Source: Candidatus Eiseniibacteriota bacterium
GTDB taxonomy: Bacteria; Arandabacterota; Arandabacteria; Arandabacterales; Arandabacteraceae
Assembly (NCBI GenBank): GCA_043810925.1
Contig: JBDRNT010000014.1
Coordinates: 1-49,744, forward strand
Length of the DNA: 49,744 nt
Reading direction: 5' to 3'
A program made the translations under genes and the position numbers. The notes below the pieces were generated by a model. That model had not been told where the DNA came from. It did not search any database and saw nothing but the letters and a program-made list of their open reading frames with translations. Of the stretch, positions 896-35,873 are shown one piece after another (positions within the stretch are counted from its first letter, which is position 1; each line of letters starts with the position of its first letter).

Positions 896-919
896 TAATT
901 CGGTAACAGTTTGCAAATC
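896..919 (+). repeat. Degenerate copy of the 24-bp RAYT-end motif
   Basis: TAATTCGGTAACAGTTTGCAAATC matches 2789..2812 at 20/24 positions and lies 11 nt after the TGA at 884. Confidence 0.75.
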
Positions 920-943
920 AGGGGCCGGATCACTCCGGCCCCT
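920..943. terminator. Hairpin between convergent genes, probable terminator
   Basis: AGGGGCCGGA-TCAC-TCCGGCCCCT forms a perfect 10-bp stem with T-rich flanks. Confidence 0.7.
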
Positions 944-979
944 CTTGTATAGCCTGTAATGTCTGACTGCCGTCGTCGG

Positions 980-2038
980 TCAGTCGGTGAACTCTTCCTT
1001 GACTTCGCCCAGGGTCTTCGATTCTGCCCCAGGTGCTCCAAGCACCGTACCGGCACCATCACCCGGACAGCAGCCATCACCAACGTCACCAACCTGGACG
1101 CGATAATAATCCCCGCAATCTTCGATCTCGATATTGGTCACATCCAGGCCCATGGCCTCTAGCTGCGCGCGAGCCTCGGCTTCAGCCTCTTCAAGCGTCT
1201 TCCCGGCGGCAACGATCCTAATCTCAATTGCACGCTTGGTCATGTACTCACCATCGGGAGGCTCCATGCCGTCGATACTGATCCTGACCGGCATGGCGGT
1301 GCAGTCCGCCCCTTCTTCAGCGCACTGCTCGATCCCGATTTCGATCCGCTTCTCGCCCTCGCTTGTCTGAACGTCTACCAGACAAGCTTCGAAGCCTGCG
1401 GCTTCGATCTGGGTGCGGATCTCATCCTCGATCTCTTCATCGGTCAGACCTTCGCTGTTTACCCTGATCTCGACGATCCCGTTGGCCGCCATGGCATAGA
1501 CGTTTCCGGTGACGCGTTCGGTCACAGGCTCGACCTCGGCAGTTGCGGCAACGCCCCTTTCGGTCAAAGCCCGGGCAAAACCTGAGGCCAACCCCTCAAG
1601 TGTGCCCGCCGATCGAACGGGCACTTCGGCGGAGATCCTTGCTCCCCGAGGTCCCGCGGCCAATTTCACGTTCTCCGTGTCCAGGGCTTTCCCGAACTCG
1701 CCTGCAACGGTTTCGATGTCGACACCGGTTGCATCCGATATCTCGAGCGTTGCCCGGTAACCGGTTGTCCTGGTGTAGGAGATCGGTATCGCAAGAAGCA
1801 CGACCGCAACAACAGCGACACCCATGACTGCTGCCATCGCCGGATGACTCTTTAGTGAATGAAGAACTTTCATCAGTGATCCCTCCTCGGACCTGTGCAG
1901 ATTGCGTTTCCATAGTCTCTGCGTGGTCTGGTCTATTGTCGGTAAATCCCGTTTGCTTCGCTCGCCAAACGCCTTGAGATCCGAACTGATTCTATCGGGA
2001 TCCATGCGTCTGCGATGCTTGTCGCTGGGGAAGTTCAT
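980..2038 (-). CDS. Membrane-anchored putative anti-sigma factor / hypothetical protein
   Basis: Overlaps the ECF sigma stop codon (ATGA). It has a short cytoplasmic N-terminus, one TM (AVMGVAVVAVVLLAIPI) and an acidic extracytoplasmic domain with an internal repeat (EIRVNSEGLTDEEIEDEIRTQIEAAG / EIRIVAAGKTLEEAEAEARAQLEAMG). Confidence 0.55.
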   Translation of the reverse strand: MNFPSDKHRRRMDPDRISSDLKAFGERSKRDLPTIDQTTQRLWKRNLHRSEEGSLMKVLHSLKSHPAMAAVMGVAVVAVVLLAIPISYTRTTGYRATLEISDATGVDIETVAGEFGKALDTENVKLAAGPRGARISAEVPVRSAGTLEGLASGFARALTERGVAATAEVEPVTERVTGNVYAMAANGIVEIRVNSEGLTDEEIEDEIRTQIEAAGFEACLVDVQTSEGEKRIEIGIEQCAEEGADCTAMPVRISIDGMEPPDGEYMTKRAIEIRIVAAGKTLEEAEAEARAQLEAMGLDVTNIEIEDCGDYYRVQVGDVGDGCCPGDGAGTVLGAPGAESKTLGEVKEEFTD

Positions 2039-2697
2039 GGCATCTCACCCTCCGGTAGGGGCGCGCTCCGGTTTCCACACCCTCTGGTCTTGAGGGCCCC
2101 ACTTGCCGGGACCGCCTTGAAGAGCGATGTGGCGCCTGATTCAGGGGTTTCCCGCCCCGGGAGTTCCCCTCGATTAGAAAAACCAAGTCTCTCGTAGTGC
2201 CGGCGGAGACGCTTTCGCGCCCGGGACAGTCTTGATTTCACCGCCGACAGGGAGATCTTCTGAATGGCTGAGATCTCTTCGACGGAGAATCCGTCCATCT
2301 CGAACAAGACCACGGCCTCACGCTGTTCGGGGGGAAGACCCGCAAGTGCCCGGGACACTCGCTCAGCCCCCCGTCGCTCGTCATCCCAGGACGCACCATC
2401 CTCGCCGGCCGCATCTATGGATTTTCCGTCCTTCCCCTCCAGGGAGAGAAAGCGACGCCAGAAACCACGCCGGGAACGATTGCGGTGCACCGAGAGAAGA
2501 ATCGAGTAAAACCAGGGCCGGAAGCGTGACTCGTCACGAAGGGCTGGAAGCTTATCGTACGCGCGTATCACGGCTTCCTGGAAGAGGTCGTCACCGTCTT
2601 CCGCCGAACGGCTAAGACGCCGTGCGGTCGCTGCAGCCCGATCGTGAAAAGGCCTCAATAGACCGATCAGTCGCTGCCAGGATTCCGTGGGTTCCAC
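2035..2697 (-). CDS. ECF RNA polymerase sigma-70 factor
   Basis: Region 2 (DDLFQEAVIRAY...FRPWFYSI) and region 4 (LPPEQREAVVLFEMDGFSVEEIS...AVKSRLSRAR). Confidence 0.92.
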   Translation of the reverse strand: MEPTESWQRLIGLLRPFHDRAAATARRLSRSAEDGDDLFQEAVIRAYDKLPALRDESRFRPWFYSILLSVHRNRSRRGFWRRFLSLEGKDGKSIDAAGEDGASWDDERRGAERVSRALAGLPPEQREAVVLFEMDGFSVEEISAIQKISLSAVKSRLSRARKRLRRHYERLGFSNRGELPGRETPESGATSLFKAVPASGALKTRGCGNRSAPLPEGEMP

Positions 2698-2776: not shown

Positions 2777-2852
2777 AACAAACTGCGCTAATTCGGTACC
2801 AGCTTACAAATTCTTACTAATTCCGGTTCCAGCCCGGCAGTTAACTGGCGTA

Positions 2853-3521
2853 TCAGGGCTTGCGCCTCCGTGGGCCCTGCGGACCACGCTTCTGGGGCCG
2901 TAGGATCCTACCCGTCAACTGCTCACAATGTTCCACGAACGATATGTCACCCAGAGGCAGTCCTGTTCCCTCGTGCTTTTCATAAACACGGGTATTGCTC
3001 GACCCCTGCTCTAAGAATCCCCTCCAATCCGGCACAAGTTTGAGAAGGGGTCCAACTGCAACCAGTTTATCGTCGCAGGCCGACAGATGCGCCCTCGCAC
3101 TACTCCAGCGCCAACCTTCCGGTCTGGTTGTGAGACGCGCTACGACCGGGTTCATCTCTATGTAACGAGCAGCAGTCAGAAGGTGCTCCTCGTCCATGGG
3201 GTAAGATGCGAACCGCTGTCGCCAAAGGTGCCCGATCCAGTTTTTTTTCATGTTGACCCGCACGGCATGATAGCGGTGTGCTTCGCCGACTGCGCGGCCC
3301 AGTTCATCAGGCTTGTGGGGTACAGCTATCAGATGCACGTGGTTCGGCATCAGGCAGTATGCCCAGACCTCGATACTATGCCGGTCACACCGCTCCCGCA
3401 TGACCTGGATATACGCATCATAATCACTAGCTGAAAAGAAGATCTGCTGGCGGCGGTTGCCGCGCTGAATGATATGGTGGGGAATTCCCCCTATCACCAC
3501 ACGTCCCGTTTTCCCCATCAC
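2853..3521 (-). CDS. REP-associated tyrosine transposase (RAYT)-like Y1/HUH transposase
   Basis: PHHIIQRGNRRQQIF, HUH motif YCLMPNHVHL, GHLW..RF and catalytic-Tyr motif RYIEMNPV...WRWSS. Confidence 0.9.
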   Translation of the reverse strand: MMGKTGRVVIGGIPHHIIQRGNRRQQIFFSASDYDAYIQVMRERCDRHSIEVWAYCLMPNHVHLIAVPHKPDELGRAVGEAHRYHAVRVNMKKNWIGHLWRQRFASYPMDEEHLLTAARYIEMNPVVARLTTRPEGWRWSSARAHLSACDDKLVAVGPLLKLVPDWRGFLEQGSSNTRVYEKHEGTGLPLGDISFVEHCEQLTGRILRPQKRGPQGPRRRKP

Positions 3522-3525
3522 GAAC

Positions 3526-3555
3526 AGATTACCAGGAATCCAGGGGAGAAGTCAA
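3526..3555 (-). promoter_or_regulatory. sigma70-like promoter of the transposase (predicted leaderless mRNA)
   Basis: TTGACT-N18-(TGn)TAATCT. The ATG at 3518 lies 7 nt downstream and there is no Shine-Dalgarno. Confidence 0.55.
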
Positions 3556-3647
3556 TAGCGAGGACCGAACATTTCAGCCAGGTCTAATTAGCAATTGCTA
3601 AACTGGCACCAAATTAGCCCTGTAATTTGTAAGCTGGTACCGAATTA

Positions 3648-5090
3648 CTAGGTGCCTTTGCGGACAACGGTGCCCTGGGGGCGGTCTTCGAGGTAGTAAC
3701 CCTGGGCCGCAAGGCGGGTTCTTATGTCATCGGCCGCTGCCCAGTCCTTGGCCTCGCGGGCCTTATTGCGCTCACCGACCAGGTCCCTGACCTCTATAGG
3801 AAGGTCGTCGGCCCGGATTATCTCACCGCCCAGGCCACGGAGTATCCCTAAGACGTCGGCCAGTTCCTTGATCTTAACCAGCGCCGATGAAAGCACCAGT
3901 TTCTTTGACGGCGCCTCACCGGCCTTAAGATAGAGATTCACCTCTTTGGCGATGTCGAAGATACTCCCGATTGCGCCGGCGGAGTTGAAATCATCATCCA
4001 TCACCTGGCAGAACAGATCTGCCTTCTCCTTGACCTTGTTCCAGAATTCGAGATCGCTCCCACTTAAGTCCTCGAGTGAACCTTCGGGTTTGTCATCTCC
4101 GACATAGGACTCGACCGATCTGAAGGTATTGGCCATCCTCTGGACCGCCGACCGGTTCTCAGCAAGCCGCTCGCGGCTGAACTCCATCGGACTCCGGTAA
4201 TGCGATGAGAGAAGATAGAACCGGATCACGTCCGGATCAAATTCCTTGATGATGTCTTCGATGGCAAAGAAATGCCCCGTCGATTTCGACATCTTCTCGC
4301 CGACAAGGTTCAAGAGCCCGTTGTGGGCCCAGAAATTGACGAACTTCTGACCTGTTGCTCCCTCGGACTGCGCAATCTCATTTTCATGATGCGGAAAGAT
4401 CAGATCCTCCCCACCACCGTGAATATCTACAGTAGTACCGCAGTACTTGGTCGACATCACGGAGCACTCTATCGCCCATCCGGGTCGTCCCCGTCCCCAC
4501 GGACTCTCCCACGAGGGCTCGCCTTCCTTGGCTGCCTTCCAGAGTACGAAATCCACCGGACTTCGCTTATGCTCCCCGACCTCAACCCGCGCTCCCGCCT
4601 TAAGCTCGTCTATCTTCTTCTTGGATAGCCGGCCGTACGGTGCGAACTTGGCTATCTCGTAGTAGACATCACCACCCGCCTCGTATGCGAAACCCTTGGA
4701 GACGAGTGTCTCGACAAGATCGACGATGTCCTTGATGTGCTCGGTCGCCTTGGGATGGACGGTCGCACGCTTGATATTGAGGAGATCCGCATACTTGAAA
4801 TACTCAGCGGTGTACCGGTCCGCGATCACCGTATAGTCGACACCCTCAGCATTGGACCGCGCGATTATCTTGTCGTCGACATCCGTGAAGTTCTGAACAT
4901 AGGTAACCTCGTAACCCTTGTATTCGAGATACCGCCTTATCATATCGCCGCACACGAAGGCGAGCATATGGCCGACATGCGGTCTGTCCTGCACGGTCAT
5001 CCCGCACATGTACATCCCGACCTTGCCGTCCTTGACGGGAACCAGATCCTTCTTCCTGGCATCAAATGTATCGTAGATCCTGAGTGCCAC
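3648..5090 (-). CDS. cysS: Cysteine--tRNA ligase
   Basis: CG.TV...HVGH, NFTDVDDKII, GRPGW.IEC, DIHGGGEDLIFPHHENE, KMSKS and the DDFN anticodon domain. Confidence 0.97.
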   Translation of the reverse strand: MALRIYDTFDARKKDLVPVKDGKVGMYMCGMTVQDRPHVGHMLAFVCGDMIRRYLEYKGYEVTYVQNFTDVDDKIIARSNAEGVDYTVIADRYTAEYFKYADLLNIKRATVHPKATEHIKDIVDLVETLVSKGFAYEAGGDVYYEIAKFAPYGRLSKKKIDELKAGARVEVGEHKRSPVDFVLWKAAKEGEPSWESPWGRGRPGWAIECSVMSTKYCGTTVDIHGGGEDLIFPHHENEIAQSEGATGQKFVNFWAHNGLLNLVGEKMSKSTGHFFAIEDIIKEFDPDVIRFYLLSSHYRSPMEFSRERLAENRSAVQRMANTFRSVESYVGDDKPEGSLEDLSGSDLEFWNKVKEKADLFCQVMDDDFNSAGAIGSIFDIAKEVNLYLKAGEAPSKKLVLSSALVKIKELADVLGILRGLGGEIIRADDLPIEVRDLVGERNKAREAKDWAAADDIRTRLAAQGYYLEDRPQGTVVRKGT

Positions 5091-14105: not shown

Positions 14106-14838
14106 TTCTCATCGCTCCTCGGATAGGTAGATCAAGGAACCTCATAACCTCTTTGATATCCTCCCATACCAGCTTCTTGTTTGCAGGGAACCGGAGGCAC
14201 GCGGCCGGGTGAAAAGTCGGGATCACGTTTATGCCTTTGTAAACATGGATCCGGCCCCTCGTTGCGCCGATACCCCGTCTTGTTCCCGTGATCGTCTGTG
14301 TCGCCACCACTCCCAGCGTACAGATGATCTCAGGATGTATCATCTCAATCTGTTTTTCAAGGCAGGGGAGGCATTCACTGATCTCATCGAGCTCCGGGTT
14401 CCGGTTACCGGGCGGCCGGCATTTAACAATGTTGGTGATATAGACATCGTCCCGCTCAAGACCCATCGCCTCGATTATTTTGGTCAATAAGACGCCGGCT
14501 CTGCCCACAAATGGCCGGCCGCTCAGGTCTTCGTCCCTGCCGGGGCCCTCACCGACGAACATAAGCCGGCTTGACGGATTCCCCTCGCCGAAGACCATGT
14601 TCGTTCTGGTGCAATGGAGGCCGCACCTCGTACATGATGCAGTTTCTGCCTCAAGAGCAGCAAGCGGTGGTTCCCCGGGCGGCGGCTCCCCACCGGAACC
14701 GGCCTTCCCCTCACTTTGAGACCAGTCCTCCATAAGCAGGATATCTTCAGTTCCTGAGATCTCCAGAAGTCGCAGCCAGTTACACAGCTCGGTACGAAGA
14801 CTTTCCCGGTCTATTTCAGCGGTGTGTTCCCCTGCCAT
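14080..14838 (-). CDS. Uracil-DNA glycosylase, family 4
   Basis: CTRC, GEGPG..ED..GRPFVG, NIVKCRPP.NR.P, TFHPA. Confidence 0.93.
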   Translation of the reverse strand: MAGEHTAEIDRESLRTELCNWLRLLEISGTEDILLMEDWSQSEGKAGSGGEPPPGEPPLAALEAETASCTRCGLHCTRTNMVFGEGNPSSRLMFVGEGPGRDEDLSGRPFVGRAGVLLTKIIEAMGLERDDVYITNIVKCRPPGNRNPELDEISECLPCLEKQIEMIHPEIICTLGVVATQTITGTRRGIGATRGRIHVYKGINVIPTFHPAACLRFPANKKLVWEDIKEVMRFLDLPIRGAMRNGPGKNKH

Positions 14839-23540: not shown

Positions 23541-24956
23541 TTACACTTCTTCAAGTTTAAGCAGATTCGTCTTACCGGTTATCCAGGGGGGCACGCCGGC
23601 CGTGACGACCACGAGATCGCCCTTCTTAACGATCCCTCGTCTCCGCGCAGCAGCAATAGCCAACCGGATCATCTCGTCGGTATTTCTTGCTTGTCTTATC
23701 TCCTCACAGATTACCCCGTGGGACAGCGCCAGTTTCATCCGCGTATCTCTTGACGGGGTAACGGCCAGGATCGGCACATCCGGTCTGAACTTGGCTACCC
23801 TCAGGGCTGTGCTGCCCGTTATTGTCGAGGTTATGATCGCGGTGGCACCCAGCCTCTCCGCTGCACCTGCCGCAAGATAGGCGATGTTCTCGTCTTTCCC
23901 CGGTCCGGGTACAAAGGGCTCCCTTACCCTTATCCATTCTCCCCTCTGAGCCATCTCGGTTCGCCTGGCAATTGAAGCCATTGTCCGTACGGCTTCCACC
24001 GGGAAAGCACCAATTGCGGTCTCCCCACTGAGCATAACCGCGTCCGTACCGTCCAGCACCGCATTGGCGACATCGCTTGCCTCTGCCCTCGTCGGCTGTG
24101 GGTTCGTCATCATGGATTCGAGCATCTGGGTTGCCGTGATTACCGGCTTGGCCATGCGGTTACATTTCTCAATCAGGAGCTTCTGGATAATGGGTAGCCT
24201 GCTGATCGAAACCTCTGAAGCAAGATCACCCCTGGCAACGAGGATTCCATCGGAACTTTCAATGATTGCATCGATTTCCCTGACGGCTTCACTCGTCTCA
24301 ATCTTGGCAATGATACCGACGCCCTTCTTCCGGATCTTCTTACGAAGATTGATCACGTCGGATGCCGCCCGCACAAACGAGAGCGCGATGAAATCAACAC
24401 CTTTTGATATCCCGAACCTTAGATCCCGCATGTCCTTCTCGGTCAGTGACGGAAAGTCGGACCGGGACTCCGGGAAGCTGATCCCCTTTCCGGAATGGAC
24501 GGTTCCACCCTTGACGACCCTGCACCTGAGTTTCCCCCCTGCCACGGATTTCACCCTGAGGCTTGTTCCGAGATCACCTATGGTGACCCTGTGACCGGCC
24601 CTGACACCGCCGAACGAATACCGTGGTGAGACCGGAATATCCGTCCCTTCCCCGACCTTTGCTCCAAGGGTGACCGTCGTTCCCCGCCGGAGGACAATCT
24701 GCCCGTCCGTTAACCGCCCCACCCGGAAACGCGGCCCCTGGAGATCCTGTATGATCGGGATGGGCCTGCCCTTGCTGCCGACAACTCCGCGGATGTTTCG
24801 AATCAAGGCTTCATGCGTGGCATGATCCCCATGCGAGAAATTAAGCCGTATCCCGTCCACACCCGCCCTAATCAGCGAACGGATTATCGTGCGGGAGCTT
24901 GACGCGGGTCCAAGCGTAGCTATTATCTTGGTTTGTCTTTGCAATGATCTTGCCAC
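23541..24956 (-). CDS. pyk: Pyruvate kinase
   Basis: TKIIATLGPAS, RLNFSHG, DLQGP, AKIE, VARGDL, TATQMLESM, DAVMLSGETA.G. Confidence 0.97.
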   Translation of the reverse strand: MARSLQRQTKIIATLGPASSSRTIIRSLIRAGVDGIRLNFSHGDHATHEALIRNIRGVVGSKGRPIPIIQDLQGPRFRVGRLTDGQIVLRRGTTVTLGAKVGEGTDIPVSPRYSFGGVRAGHRVTIGDLGTSLRVKSVAGGKLRCRVVKGGTVHSGKGISFPESRSDFPSLTEKDMRDLRFGISKGVDFIALSFVRAASDVINLRKKIRKKGVGIIAKIETSEAVREIDAIIESSDGILVARGDLASEVSISRLPIIQKLLIEKCNRMAKPVITATQMLESMMTNPQPTRAEASDVANAVLDGTDAVMLSGETAIGAFPVEAVRTMASIARRTEMAQRGEWIRVREPFVPGPGKDENIAYLAAGAAERLGATAIITSTITGSTALRVAKFRPDVPILAVTPSRDTRMKLALSHGVICEEIRQARNTDEMIRLAIAAARRRGIVKKGDLVVVTAGVPPWITGKTNLLKLEEV

Positions 24957-25061
24957 CGTATCGGGCCCATTTACTTAGACGGAATCAACTTGACGATCCG
25001 GACAACTCATTTGTGGCTCTACCGTAGCACGTCCCTCTTCTCATTGGCAACCGTTCTCCCG

Positions 25062-25167
25062 GATTCGGTGGCAGTTTAGAAGTTCCCTACCCGCTCCGCA
25101 TAAGTCCCGTGACAGTTCAGAAATTCCCCGCCTGCCACCGGGATAATTAGCTGACTGTCACCGGATC
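25062..25167. repeat. Cluster of three degenerate RAYT-end motifs
   Basis: GATTCGGTGGCAGTTTAGAAGTT (+), TAAGTCCCGTGACAGTTCAGAAATT (+) and AATTAGCTGACTGTCACCGGATC (-). Confidence 0.55.
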
Positions 25168-25245
25168 TTTCGCCTCCGGGCTCGTTCATTGAATATTCTG
25201 GATACTCCAATCGTATATGCTATGGTGGCAAAGAAAGGAGCCCCT

Positions 25246-27910: not shown

Positions 27911-28007
27911 TAATTCGGTACCAGCTTGGTAATTTGGACTGTCACCGGATTACTGCTGTGGTCTTCACTGAATCCGCTTTCGAAATTAGTAAGCTGGTAC
28001 CGAATTA
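27911..28007. mobile_element. 97-bp non-autonomous MITE-like element sharing ends with the RAYT element
   Basis: Left end TAATTCGGTACCAGCTTGGTAATT (21/24) and right end AATTAGTAAGCTGGTACCGAATTA (23/24) give a 17-bp perfect inverted repeat. An internal motif copy lies at 27931..27952. Confidence 0.8.
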
Positions 28008-35833: not shown

Positions 35834-35847
35834 ATCCAAGTTCCAGC

Positions 35848-35873
35848 AATTAAGTATGGTGTCACCGAAATTA
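35848..35873 (-). repeat. Variant RAYT-end motif abutting a stop codon
   Basis: Minus strand TGA|TAATTTCGGTGACACCATACTTAATT. Confidence 0.65.

Follow-up and report, generated by a model that had tools for sequence, protein, structure and literature searches.

A probable TIRtron with an amplified repeat family, one of three enzyme-repeat pairs in the genome of an uncultured bacterium

The names TIRtron, for an element in which a tyrosine transposase gene is associated with terminal inverted repeats (TIRs), and TIRYT, for the transposase itself, were introduced in 2013 by Di Nocera, De Gregorio & Rocco (BMC Genomics 14:522, PMC3733652). In their account, some TIRs have the sequence GGGGWSAS in common and are placed at about equal distance from the gene, the TIR families are moderately abundant, and many TIR elements are found as dimers or clusters. 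Within a single genome, as in Koribacter and Stenotrophomonas, there may be several TIRYT genes whose TIRs differ, and few genomes have both TIRtrons and TIR families. The Y1 proteins have since been sorted into 12 subclasses (Quentin, Siguier, Chandler & Fichant 2018, PMC6006769), of which subclass 2.1 takes in 20 of the 26 TIRYTs of Di Nocera et al.; it is characterized by the motifs NHVH, W[EQ] and YIELNP, an SS motif in the tail, a median length of 238 aa and the inverted-repeat consensus GGGG[AT][CG]A[CG]. A helix-turn-helix (HTH)-like C-terminal domain (Bac_DnaA_C, HTH_23, HTH_28) is conserved in 2.1.1, and the tail is heterogeneous in 2.1.2. The subclass is the second largest among the Y1 proteins (14.9% of the strains sampled), and Quentin et al. 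equate it with Group 1 of the RAYTs (tyrosine transposases associated with repetitive extragenic palindromes, REPs). In the study of Bertels et al. (2017, PMC5581495), no other RAYT group is as large or as widespread as Group 1, in which the flanking 16-mer has a modest frequency (12 occurrences). Here we analyze a stretch of 49,744 nucleotides from an uncultured Candidatus Eiseniibacteriota bacterium (the window), whose positions 2789-3647 are very probably a TIRtron: a TIRYT gene framed by inverted pairs of same-direction, ~25-nt repeats, the cognate repeat being amplified in the genome. The architecture is already known. What sets this example apart is only the presence of three amplified cognate repeat families within one genome and a sister genome that exposes polymorphic repeat sites.

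The whole unit measures 859 bp. Its outer inverted pair is 24 nt long and 100% complementary, with TAATTCGGTACCAGCTTACAAATT at 2789-2812 on the plus strand (the 3' side of the transposase gene) and the exact reverse complement at 3624-3647 on the minus strand (the 5' side of the gene), and 811 nt separate the two arms. An earlier note on this DNA, made from the letters alone, had read the pair in the same way. The note had also placed a second, degenerate copy just inside each end. On the 5' side of the gene this copy is clear (3593-3616, minus strand, 19/24 with five mismatches), and it aligns with the sole right-hand copy of the sister species introduced below. The counterpart on the 3' side (2818-2842, plus strand) is weaker: it needs a 1-nt gap, agrees at ~17/24 positions by reading and was missed by an ungapped motif search at up to six mismatches, and the sister species has one like it. 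The right outer repeat directly adjoins the stop codon of cysS (3648-3650). The window has four matches to the 24-mer at up to three mismatches, compared to none in each of 100 dinucleotide-preserving shuffles; the two beyond the outer pair make up the head-out doublet at 27911-28007. Folded as single-stranded DNA with 4-nt flanks, the two outer copies gave 0 and −2.3 kcal/mol (z of +1.06 and −1.60 over 200 shuffles), so the unit repeat folds no better than its shuffles, and neither GTAG nor GTGG is found in the 24-mer by direct reading; the motif is neither a long hairpin nor GT[AG]G-tagged, as had been said of it. Between 2700 and 3700, a promoter scan picked up a single weak site, internal to the gene and not in excess of shuffled sequence, and terminators were absent. 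Among sequencing runs, one DNA run, available as contigs, contained 0.06 of the sampled words, and no RNA run was listed as containing them.

The gene occupies 2853-3521 on the minus strand and encodes 222 aa, with a GTG start at 3521 and an ATG one codon on. Its only Pfam match at E up to 0.01 is Y1_Tnp (PF01797; E 1.2e-13, 51.7 bits against a cutoff of 23), and no tail of the Bac_DnaA_C, HTH_23 or HTH_28 type was seen at that threshold. The best NCBIfam model is REP_Tyr_transpos (NF047646), whose 62 bits fall below the cutoff of 80, and transpos_IS200 (NF033573) reaches 20.7 bits, below the cutoff of 55. In an alignment of 24 homologues, the HUH (histidine-hydrophobic-histidine) residues H60 and H62 (NHVH), Y119 (YIEMNP) and the WxWSS motif are invariant or nearly so. 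The SS motif is present in the proximal tail (WRWSSARAH), with WR in this protein where most of the aligned homologues show WQ. The structure model has a pLDDT (predicted local distance difference test) of 87.7, and its best match in the Protein Data Bank is 4er8, E. coli TnpA-REP in complex with a REP hairpin (TM, template modeling, score of 0.72 on the target over 151 columns), followed in the ranking by the TnpA proteins of ISDra2 and IS608. A sequence profile search also put 4er8 first among solved relatives (E 8.6e-6), and its order agrees with that of the fold search. As modeled, the protein is a RAYT-like tyrosine transposase with an intact HUH/Y1 fold, in keeping with the earlier reading of a RAYT-like HUH enzyme framed by non-REP inverted repeats. 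It has ~80 additional C-terminal residues compared to the 165-aa chain of 4er8. These include a basic tail, LRPxK[PR]GPKG... (residues ~203-222, window 2853-2915), which is conserved among the aligned homologues, and the last two blocks of the model are of low confidence (pLDDT 56 and 44). The tail resembles an AT-hook-like minor-groove motif, and the arms of the repeat are AATT.

The repeat that frames the gene is dispersed through the genome. In the window's own assembly (G000; 3.85 Mb in 185 contigs, 91.7% complete) the exact 24-mer was found 32 times at up to three mismatches and 80 times at up to six, with no match to the reversed control in either case. The family consensus is (A)TAATTCGGT[GA][AC]CAG[CT]TTAC[TA]AATTA, and the search with the degenerate consensus at up to four mismatches retrieved 98 copies and, for its reversed control, none. 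These copies form 62 clusters: 32 singlets, 17 doublets in the '+-' orientation and none in the '-+' orientation, 7 tandem pairs and 6 triplets. The starts of the doublet members lie 30-140 bp apart. The head-out polarity, exclusive among the doublets, is also that of the gene-bearing unit, and the doublets therefore look like gene-less miniatures of it. The family is mostly intergenic and avoids coding sequence: the longest stop-to-stop frame over a copy has a median of 72 codons, compared to 442 at 1000 random sites, and frames of at least 150 codons cover 19% of the copies versus 91% of random positions. Copies are often located just after stop codons. The core reads GGTACCAG in the element and GGTGACAG or GGTGCCAG in family variants, GGTGACAG being commoner than GGTACCAG. 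Pairing within the genome beyond the invariant AATT arms (G1/C25 and C6/G20, judged by eye) gave no signal. Several contigs (C34, C154, C184) start ~130-200 nt from a copy and have exact 141-bp overlaps with other contigs. Broken insertion sequence (IS) copies had been considered at such repeat-near contig ends and were rejected in favor of these assembly overlaps. The assembly graph forks beside repeats, and the repeat counts are hence lower bounds.

Two further Y1 genes are found in the same genome, each with a repeat of its own. A tblastn search gave three loci, namely the window, C115:14880-15533 (55% identical) and C15:6424-6858 (31% identical), and both paralogues match Y1_Tnp in Pfam. 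On C115, three direct copies of ATTTCGGTGACACCATACTTAATTA lie ahead of the gene and two inverted ones behind it; this motif, whose core GGTGACAC matches GGGGWSAS at 7/8 positions, occurs 63 times in the genome at up to three mismatches (control 0). The gene on C15, which by eye seems to have an HTH-like tail, is flanked by repeats of the CTGGGGTCAGAGCTAAAAA and GGGGTCAGAGCT types, with 72 genome copies at up to three mismatches (control 0). There are, then, three enzyme-repeat pairs in one genome, each with the same layout and with its own dispersed family (the families are lettered A, B and C below). That every paralogue has its own flanking and dispersed family argues for one-to-one recognition between enzyme and repeat.

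The association of gene and motif extends well beyond this genome. Among 8,000 candidates scored, at least 7,887 were relatives of the protein at E up to 0.001; many phyla are represented, most of the proteins are ~220 aa long, and their source names are 'transposase' or 'REP-associated tyrosine transposase'. The flanks were surveyed at the best 80 loci from a collection of species-representative genomes, and inverted motifs, which the earlier note had proposed to look for around homologues, were common there. Where at least 250 nt was available on each side (69 loci), an inverted flank match scoring 14 or more was seen at 38 loci and a direct one at 9, a score that shuffled flanks (best of five each) never attained. 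The common flanking motif is AATTCC-GGGGACACCATAC-TTAATT. Its 13-nt core, at up to three mismatches, is present in a flank at 74 of the 80 loci and on both sides at 51, its median distance from the coding match being 42 nt on the upstream and 46 nt on the downstream side, and GGGGWSAS fits 94 of 125 flanking copies. In five larger genomes with such loci the 13-mer was found 4-18 times (reversed control 0-1), many of the matches being pairs 0.7-1.65 kb apart and a few being short doublets. Amplification to ~100 copies is not the rule among the relatives. A TTGAC sequence, similar to a −35 box, lies within 16 nt after the upstream copy at 36 of 69 loci and after none of 56 downstream copies. The upstream end at these homologous loci may overlap the promoter of the gene, which would allow autoregulation.

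Comparison with related genomes bears on the history of the locus. We compared 41 genomes, the window's own and 40 relatives, among which only one (G001, 86% complete) belongs to the same genus. A Y1 relative at E up to 1e-10 is present in 18 of the 41; the protein of G001 is 84% identical, and the next best are at 50% and 42%. The repeat pattern at up to three mismatches gave 86 copies in G000 and 68 in G001 (reversed controls 0), and no copy in any of the other 39 relatives. The flanks of the TIRtron in G001 (contig C145) map to 2289-2778 and 3778-4267 of the window. The cysS/ECF (extracytoplasmic function)-sigma locus is thus common to both species, with flanks ~85% identical, and the site downstream of cysS, for which an empty allele in relatives had been envisaged, is occupied in the congener by the orthologous TIRtron. 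Because the locus is shared, the gene and its repeat family predate the split of the species (flank identity ~75-92%), and the gene has stayed in place from then on. The transposase gene behaves as a resident, vertically inherited, single-copy gene of the lineage. On the right side the two species are not identical. G001 has one copy there (~3879-3910 of the stretch L114 from C145, compared to window 3593-3780), which adjoins cysS ~38 codons earlier, and the frame of its cysteinyl-tRNA synthetase ends ...RDLVDER, with the repeat's own TAA as the stop. Judging from these sequences, G001 seems to be without the outer repeat and without the usual C-terminal tail of the synthetase, and a deletion adjacent to the repeat could be the cause.

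The dispersed copies, unlike the gene, differ between the two species. Two doublets of G001 face empty sites in G000, the length differences being 83 bp (C103) and 33 bp (C106). In the reverse direction, a 178-bp insert on C55 of G000 (24824-25001), in which a family-B doublet is nested in a family-A doublet, is absent from G001:C132, where the flanks are 87-88% identical. These are three clean sites at which the presence of repeats differs between the species. One other stretch of G000 holds an old, shared doublet with a decayed arm, and for C52:29800-34500 the match in G001 is found only beyond the repeats. The two repeat clusters of C91 coincide with synteny-block ends. The same spacer can receive different repeat families: family-C repeats occupy C7:27582-27822 of G000, and the orthologous spacer of G001 (L119:1559-1632) has a family-A doublet. 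Inspection by eye of the direct repeats flanking 23 head-out clusters revealed none that recurs, and no target duplication was seen in three filled/empty alignments, the cleanest included, although a divergence of ~15% between intergenic sequences blurs the exact junctions. The first base of the repeat varies as well (of 80 copies, 60 have T and 15 have G). The proposal that the terminal TA is a duplicated target finds no support in these data.

Set against the described systems, the locus compares best with a TIRtron. It has the RAYT-like HUH/Y1 gene, the inverted repeats devoid of GTAG, and the dispersal of the repeats as singles, dimers and groups (98 copies in 62 clusters) that PMC3733652 ascribes to such elements; related loci have a core of the GGGGWSAS type, with repeats placed at about equal distance from the gene. 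It differs from what is told there in its variant core and in the amplification of the repeats of each of the three paralogues (98, 63 and 72 copies), and its host is an uncultured lineage outside the coverage of that paper. From its motifs, the TIRYT gene probably belongs to TnpA-Y1 subclass 2.1. NHVH, YIE[LM]NP, the SS tail, the length of ~220-240 aa, the low copy number and the wide spread are compatible with the subclass (PMC6006769); the WR in place of W[EQ], the lack of a Pfam HTH tail (which is allowed in 2.1.2) and the repeats, which are plain here, set it apart. The distinct class of mobile element that the earlier note had entertained is accordingly in print, as the TIRtron/TIRYT (PMC3733652) and again as subclass 2.1 (PMC6006769), and since the REP literature defines the architecture, the claim to novelty falls.

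Several points weigh against this reading. The core of the element, GGTACCAG, matches GGGGWSAS at 5/8 positions, with GGTGACAG at 7/8; no REP-like repeats are reported near subclass 2.1 genes in PMC6006769; and the subclass assignment is motif-based. The pattern of the 13-nt core was derived from the 80 loci themselves, without a reversed control at those loci. G000 sets a minimum for the copy numbers, and its assembly may be missing another paralogue or an element present in several copies. The comparison of repeat sites covers a small sample: the G001 stretches comprised 43 clusters, of which 21 mapped by both flanks to one G000 contig and 4 of these 21 were aligned, and in the reverse direction 4 of 8 G000 stretches were searched in G001. 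The three differing sites could be gains or losses since speciation, and the direction could be that of deletion. A full-text literature search for 'TIRYT' led to two works only, and to no activity, binding or cleavage for any such protein. By analogy with the RAYTs we infer that the enzyme drives the spread of its repeat, the link between the two being correlative.

The most serious of the other explanations is that the whole 859-bp unit is an autonomous, active IS that transposes with IS-like ends. Perfect 24-bp inverted ends would suit it, as would the gene-less head-out doublets, which resemble miniature inverted-repeat transposable elements (MITEs), and pairs of cores 715-1650 bp apart are found as several units each in two other genomes (G041 and G042). 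Group 1 RAYTs also have a duplicate fraction of 6.3%, the highest among the true RAYT groups (PMC5581495). Yet the unit is present once here, the other Y1 genes (55% and 31% identity) are bounded by different ends, the sister species has the element at the same cysS/ECF-sigma site, there is no target duplication, and an excised IS would not be expected to leave remnants such as singlets (32 of 62 clusters) and tandems. With the IS200/IS605 family (IS608, ISDra2) the protein shares the HUH/Y1 core fold. That family has subterminal hairpins (PMC6006769), no inverted ends, high copy numbers and often tnpB, whereas this locus has inverted ends, a single-copy gene, no tnpB and an NF033573 score below the cutoff. 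We consider an active IS improbable, and the label 'IS-like' in the earlier note does not suit a single-copy gene at an orthologous locus whose end repeat is a dispersed family of the REP/REPIN type. The doublets are equally MITE-like if the 24-mers are the ends of a DDE transposon (IS630/Tc1-like, with a TA target) between which the Y1 gene lies incidentally, and the repeat does start and end with TA. None of the six non-Y1 open reading frames (ORFs) enclosed by '+...-' pairs 400-4000 bp apart matches a transposase family in Pfam, a result obtained on an incomplete assembly; their families are CxxCxxCC, MFS_1 (below cutoff), FGE-sulfatase and Beta_helix/NosD, and two are without a family. The repeat was accordingly not traced to a DDE/IS630 element in this genome. 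Fifteen of 80 copies start with G, the motif keeps a fixed distance from Y1 genes (74 of 80 loci, in many phyla), the paralogues have their own variants of it, and the contig ends near repeats are the 141-bp overlaps and not IS interiors, all of which makes a DDE origin very unlikely.

The locus has much in common with the REP/REPIN-RAYT systems (Nunvar et al. 2010; Bertels & Rainey 2011): a single-copy, vertically inherited gene with inverted, dispersed, intergenic repeats, doublets that fold into long hairpins, one family per paralogue, and 4er8 as the closest structure. One may then ask if it is an ordinary REPtron, with the layout described in PMC6006769, whose GT[AG]G-footed REP hairpins were overlooked; E. 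coli TnpA-REP is, after all, the best solved relative. This is scarcely credible for a unit repeat that has no GT[AG]G foot (no GTAG, no GTGG) and no stable hairpin of its own, folding as its shuffles do, and for a protein that scores 62 bits where REP_Tyr_transpos demands 80 and that continues for ~80 residues beyond the C-terminus of the 4er8 chain. Finally, the preference of the copies for intergenic positions, often right after stop codons, and the skew of TTGAC toward the upstream copy (36/69 versus 0/56), suggestive of regulatory contact, would fit a host element (a protein-binding site, a transcript end or a stabilizer) that has no enzymatic link to the Y1 gene. Such an element would not be expected to vary with its gene in three paralogue-repeat pairs of one genome or to track the gene across phyla; of the 41 genomes, the two congeners are the only ones in which this repeat family is found together with the orthologous gene, and no Rfam family matches the window at the gathering threshold. 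A host element of this kind is highly improbable.

For a TIRtron, a mechanism can be sketched. The TIRYT would recognize the repeat core between short AATT arms, which reads CGGT[GA][AC]CAG[CT]TTAC here and GGGGWSAS-N-ATAC in the relatives. The HUH/Tyr site would then cut and rejoin one DNA strand at the core, and by this cutting and rejoining repeat units could be added, deleted or inverted, as has been proposed for the action of RAYTs on REPs and REPINs. Changes in the AATT arms are compensatory across loci (AAAT/ATTT, AGTT/AACT, AAATCG/CGATTT). Within the 69 upstream copies, one per locus, 78.6% of the cells pair, compared to 71.8 ± 1.5% in shuffled sets (0/500 reach the observed value), and the covariation score is 0.296, compared to 0.202 ± 0.023 (0/500), with slid registers at no more than 0.216. 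The effect is weaker for all 125 copies and six pairs (59.7% versus 55.8%; score of 0.200 versus 0.157). This control is one that related sequences without structure can pass. A 4-bp A/T stem is unstable alone, and duplex DNA with symmetric half-sites would show this arm pattern too. The compensatory changes are one hint that the TIR may be read as a small stem-loop, with a 13-17-nt loop of GGGGWSAS-N-ATAC between AATT/AATT arms, a reading that we hold to be less likely than not. The broader proposal, that TIRs are single-strand recognition modules and that all three pairs are active, nested and at the borders of variable segments, where they may move or delete host genes in addition to themselves, strikes us as rather unlikely.

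Members of the repeat families are found elsewhere in the window and around other genes. A solo copy of the element's family is at 896-919 (plus strand, two mismatches to the degenerate consensus). In G001 a single copy (L114:1185) joins a left flank homologous to C146 to a right flank homologous to window 930-1412, whereas in G000 the C146-side flank (copy at 14344-14367) and the window flank each have a copy of their own. The copy at 896 therefore marks either a synteny breakpoint with G001 or a segment present in one species. Three decayed copies (25061-25084 and 25103-25125, plus strand; 25145-25168, minus strand) are faced at the orthologous site by one of the aligned G001 doublets. A gene-less head-out doublet spans 27911-28007 (27911-27934, plus strand; 27984-28007, minus strand) and has an orthologous doublet in G001; as single-stranded DNA it folds into a long hairpin (−27.4 kcal/mol, z −9.2), a trivial consequence of its being an inverted repeat. 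The second family, that of the C115 paralogue, contributes one solo copy at 35847-35870 (minus strand, one mismatch to TTTCGGTGACACCATACTTAATTA). Outside the window, two direct and two inverted copies of the third family (GGGGTCAGAGCT type) frame a segment of ~800 bp at C22:14476-15371, whose ORF appears by eye to be similar to a TonB C-terminal domain, a TIRtron layout around a putative non-transposase gene. Two family-A doublets 1.25 kb apart surround a gene for a secreted right-handed beta-helix protein (Beta_helix/NosD) at C148:49787-51244, and the orthologous site in G001 has a single doublet and no gene. Beside the element, the translation of the ORF at 2035-2697 (minus strand) reads as an ECF-type sigma factor, and the 352-aa ORF at 980-2038 (minus strand), for which a single membrane span is predicted, is a candidate for its anti-sigma partner.

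This genome and that of its congener make up a compact natural data set, with three enzyme-repeat pairs (63-98 copies each), polymorphic sites and one nested doublet. The known kinds of mobile element are unchanged by it, and it is a good system in which to ask which strand and which bases the enzyme reads. If the TIRs were indeed single-strand recognition modules, they would reconcile a large, uncharacterized subclass with the hairpin-reading chemistry of the HUH/Y1 enzymes.

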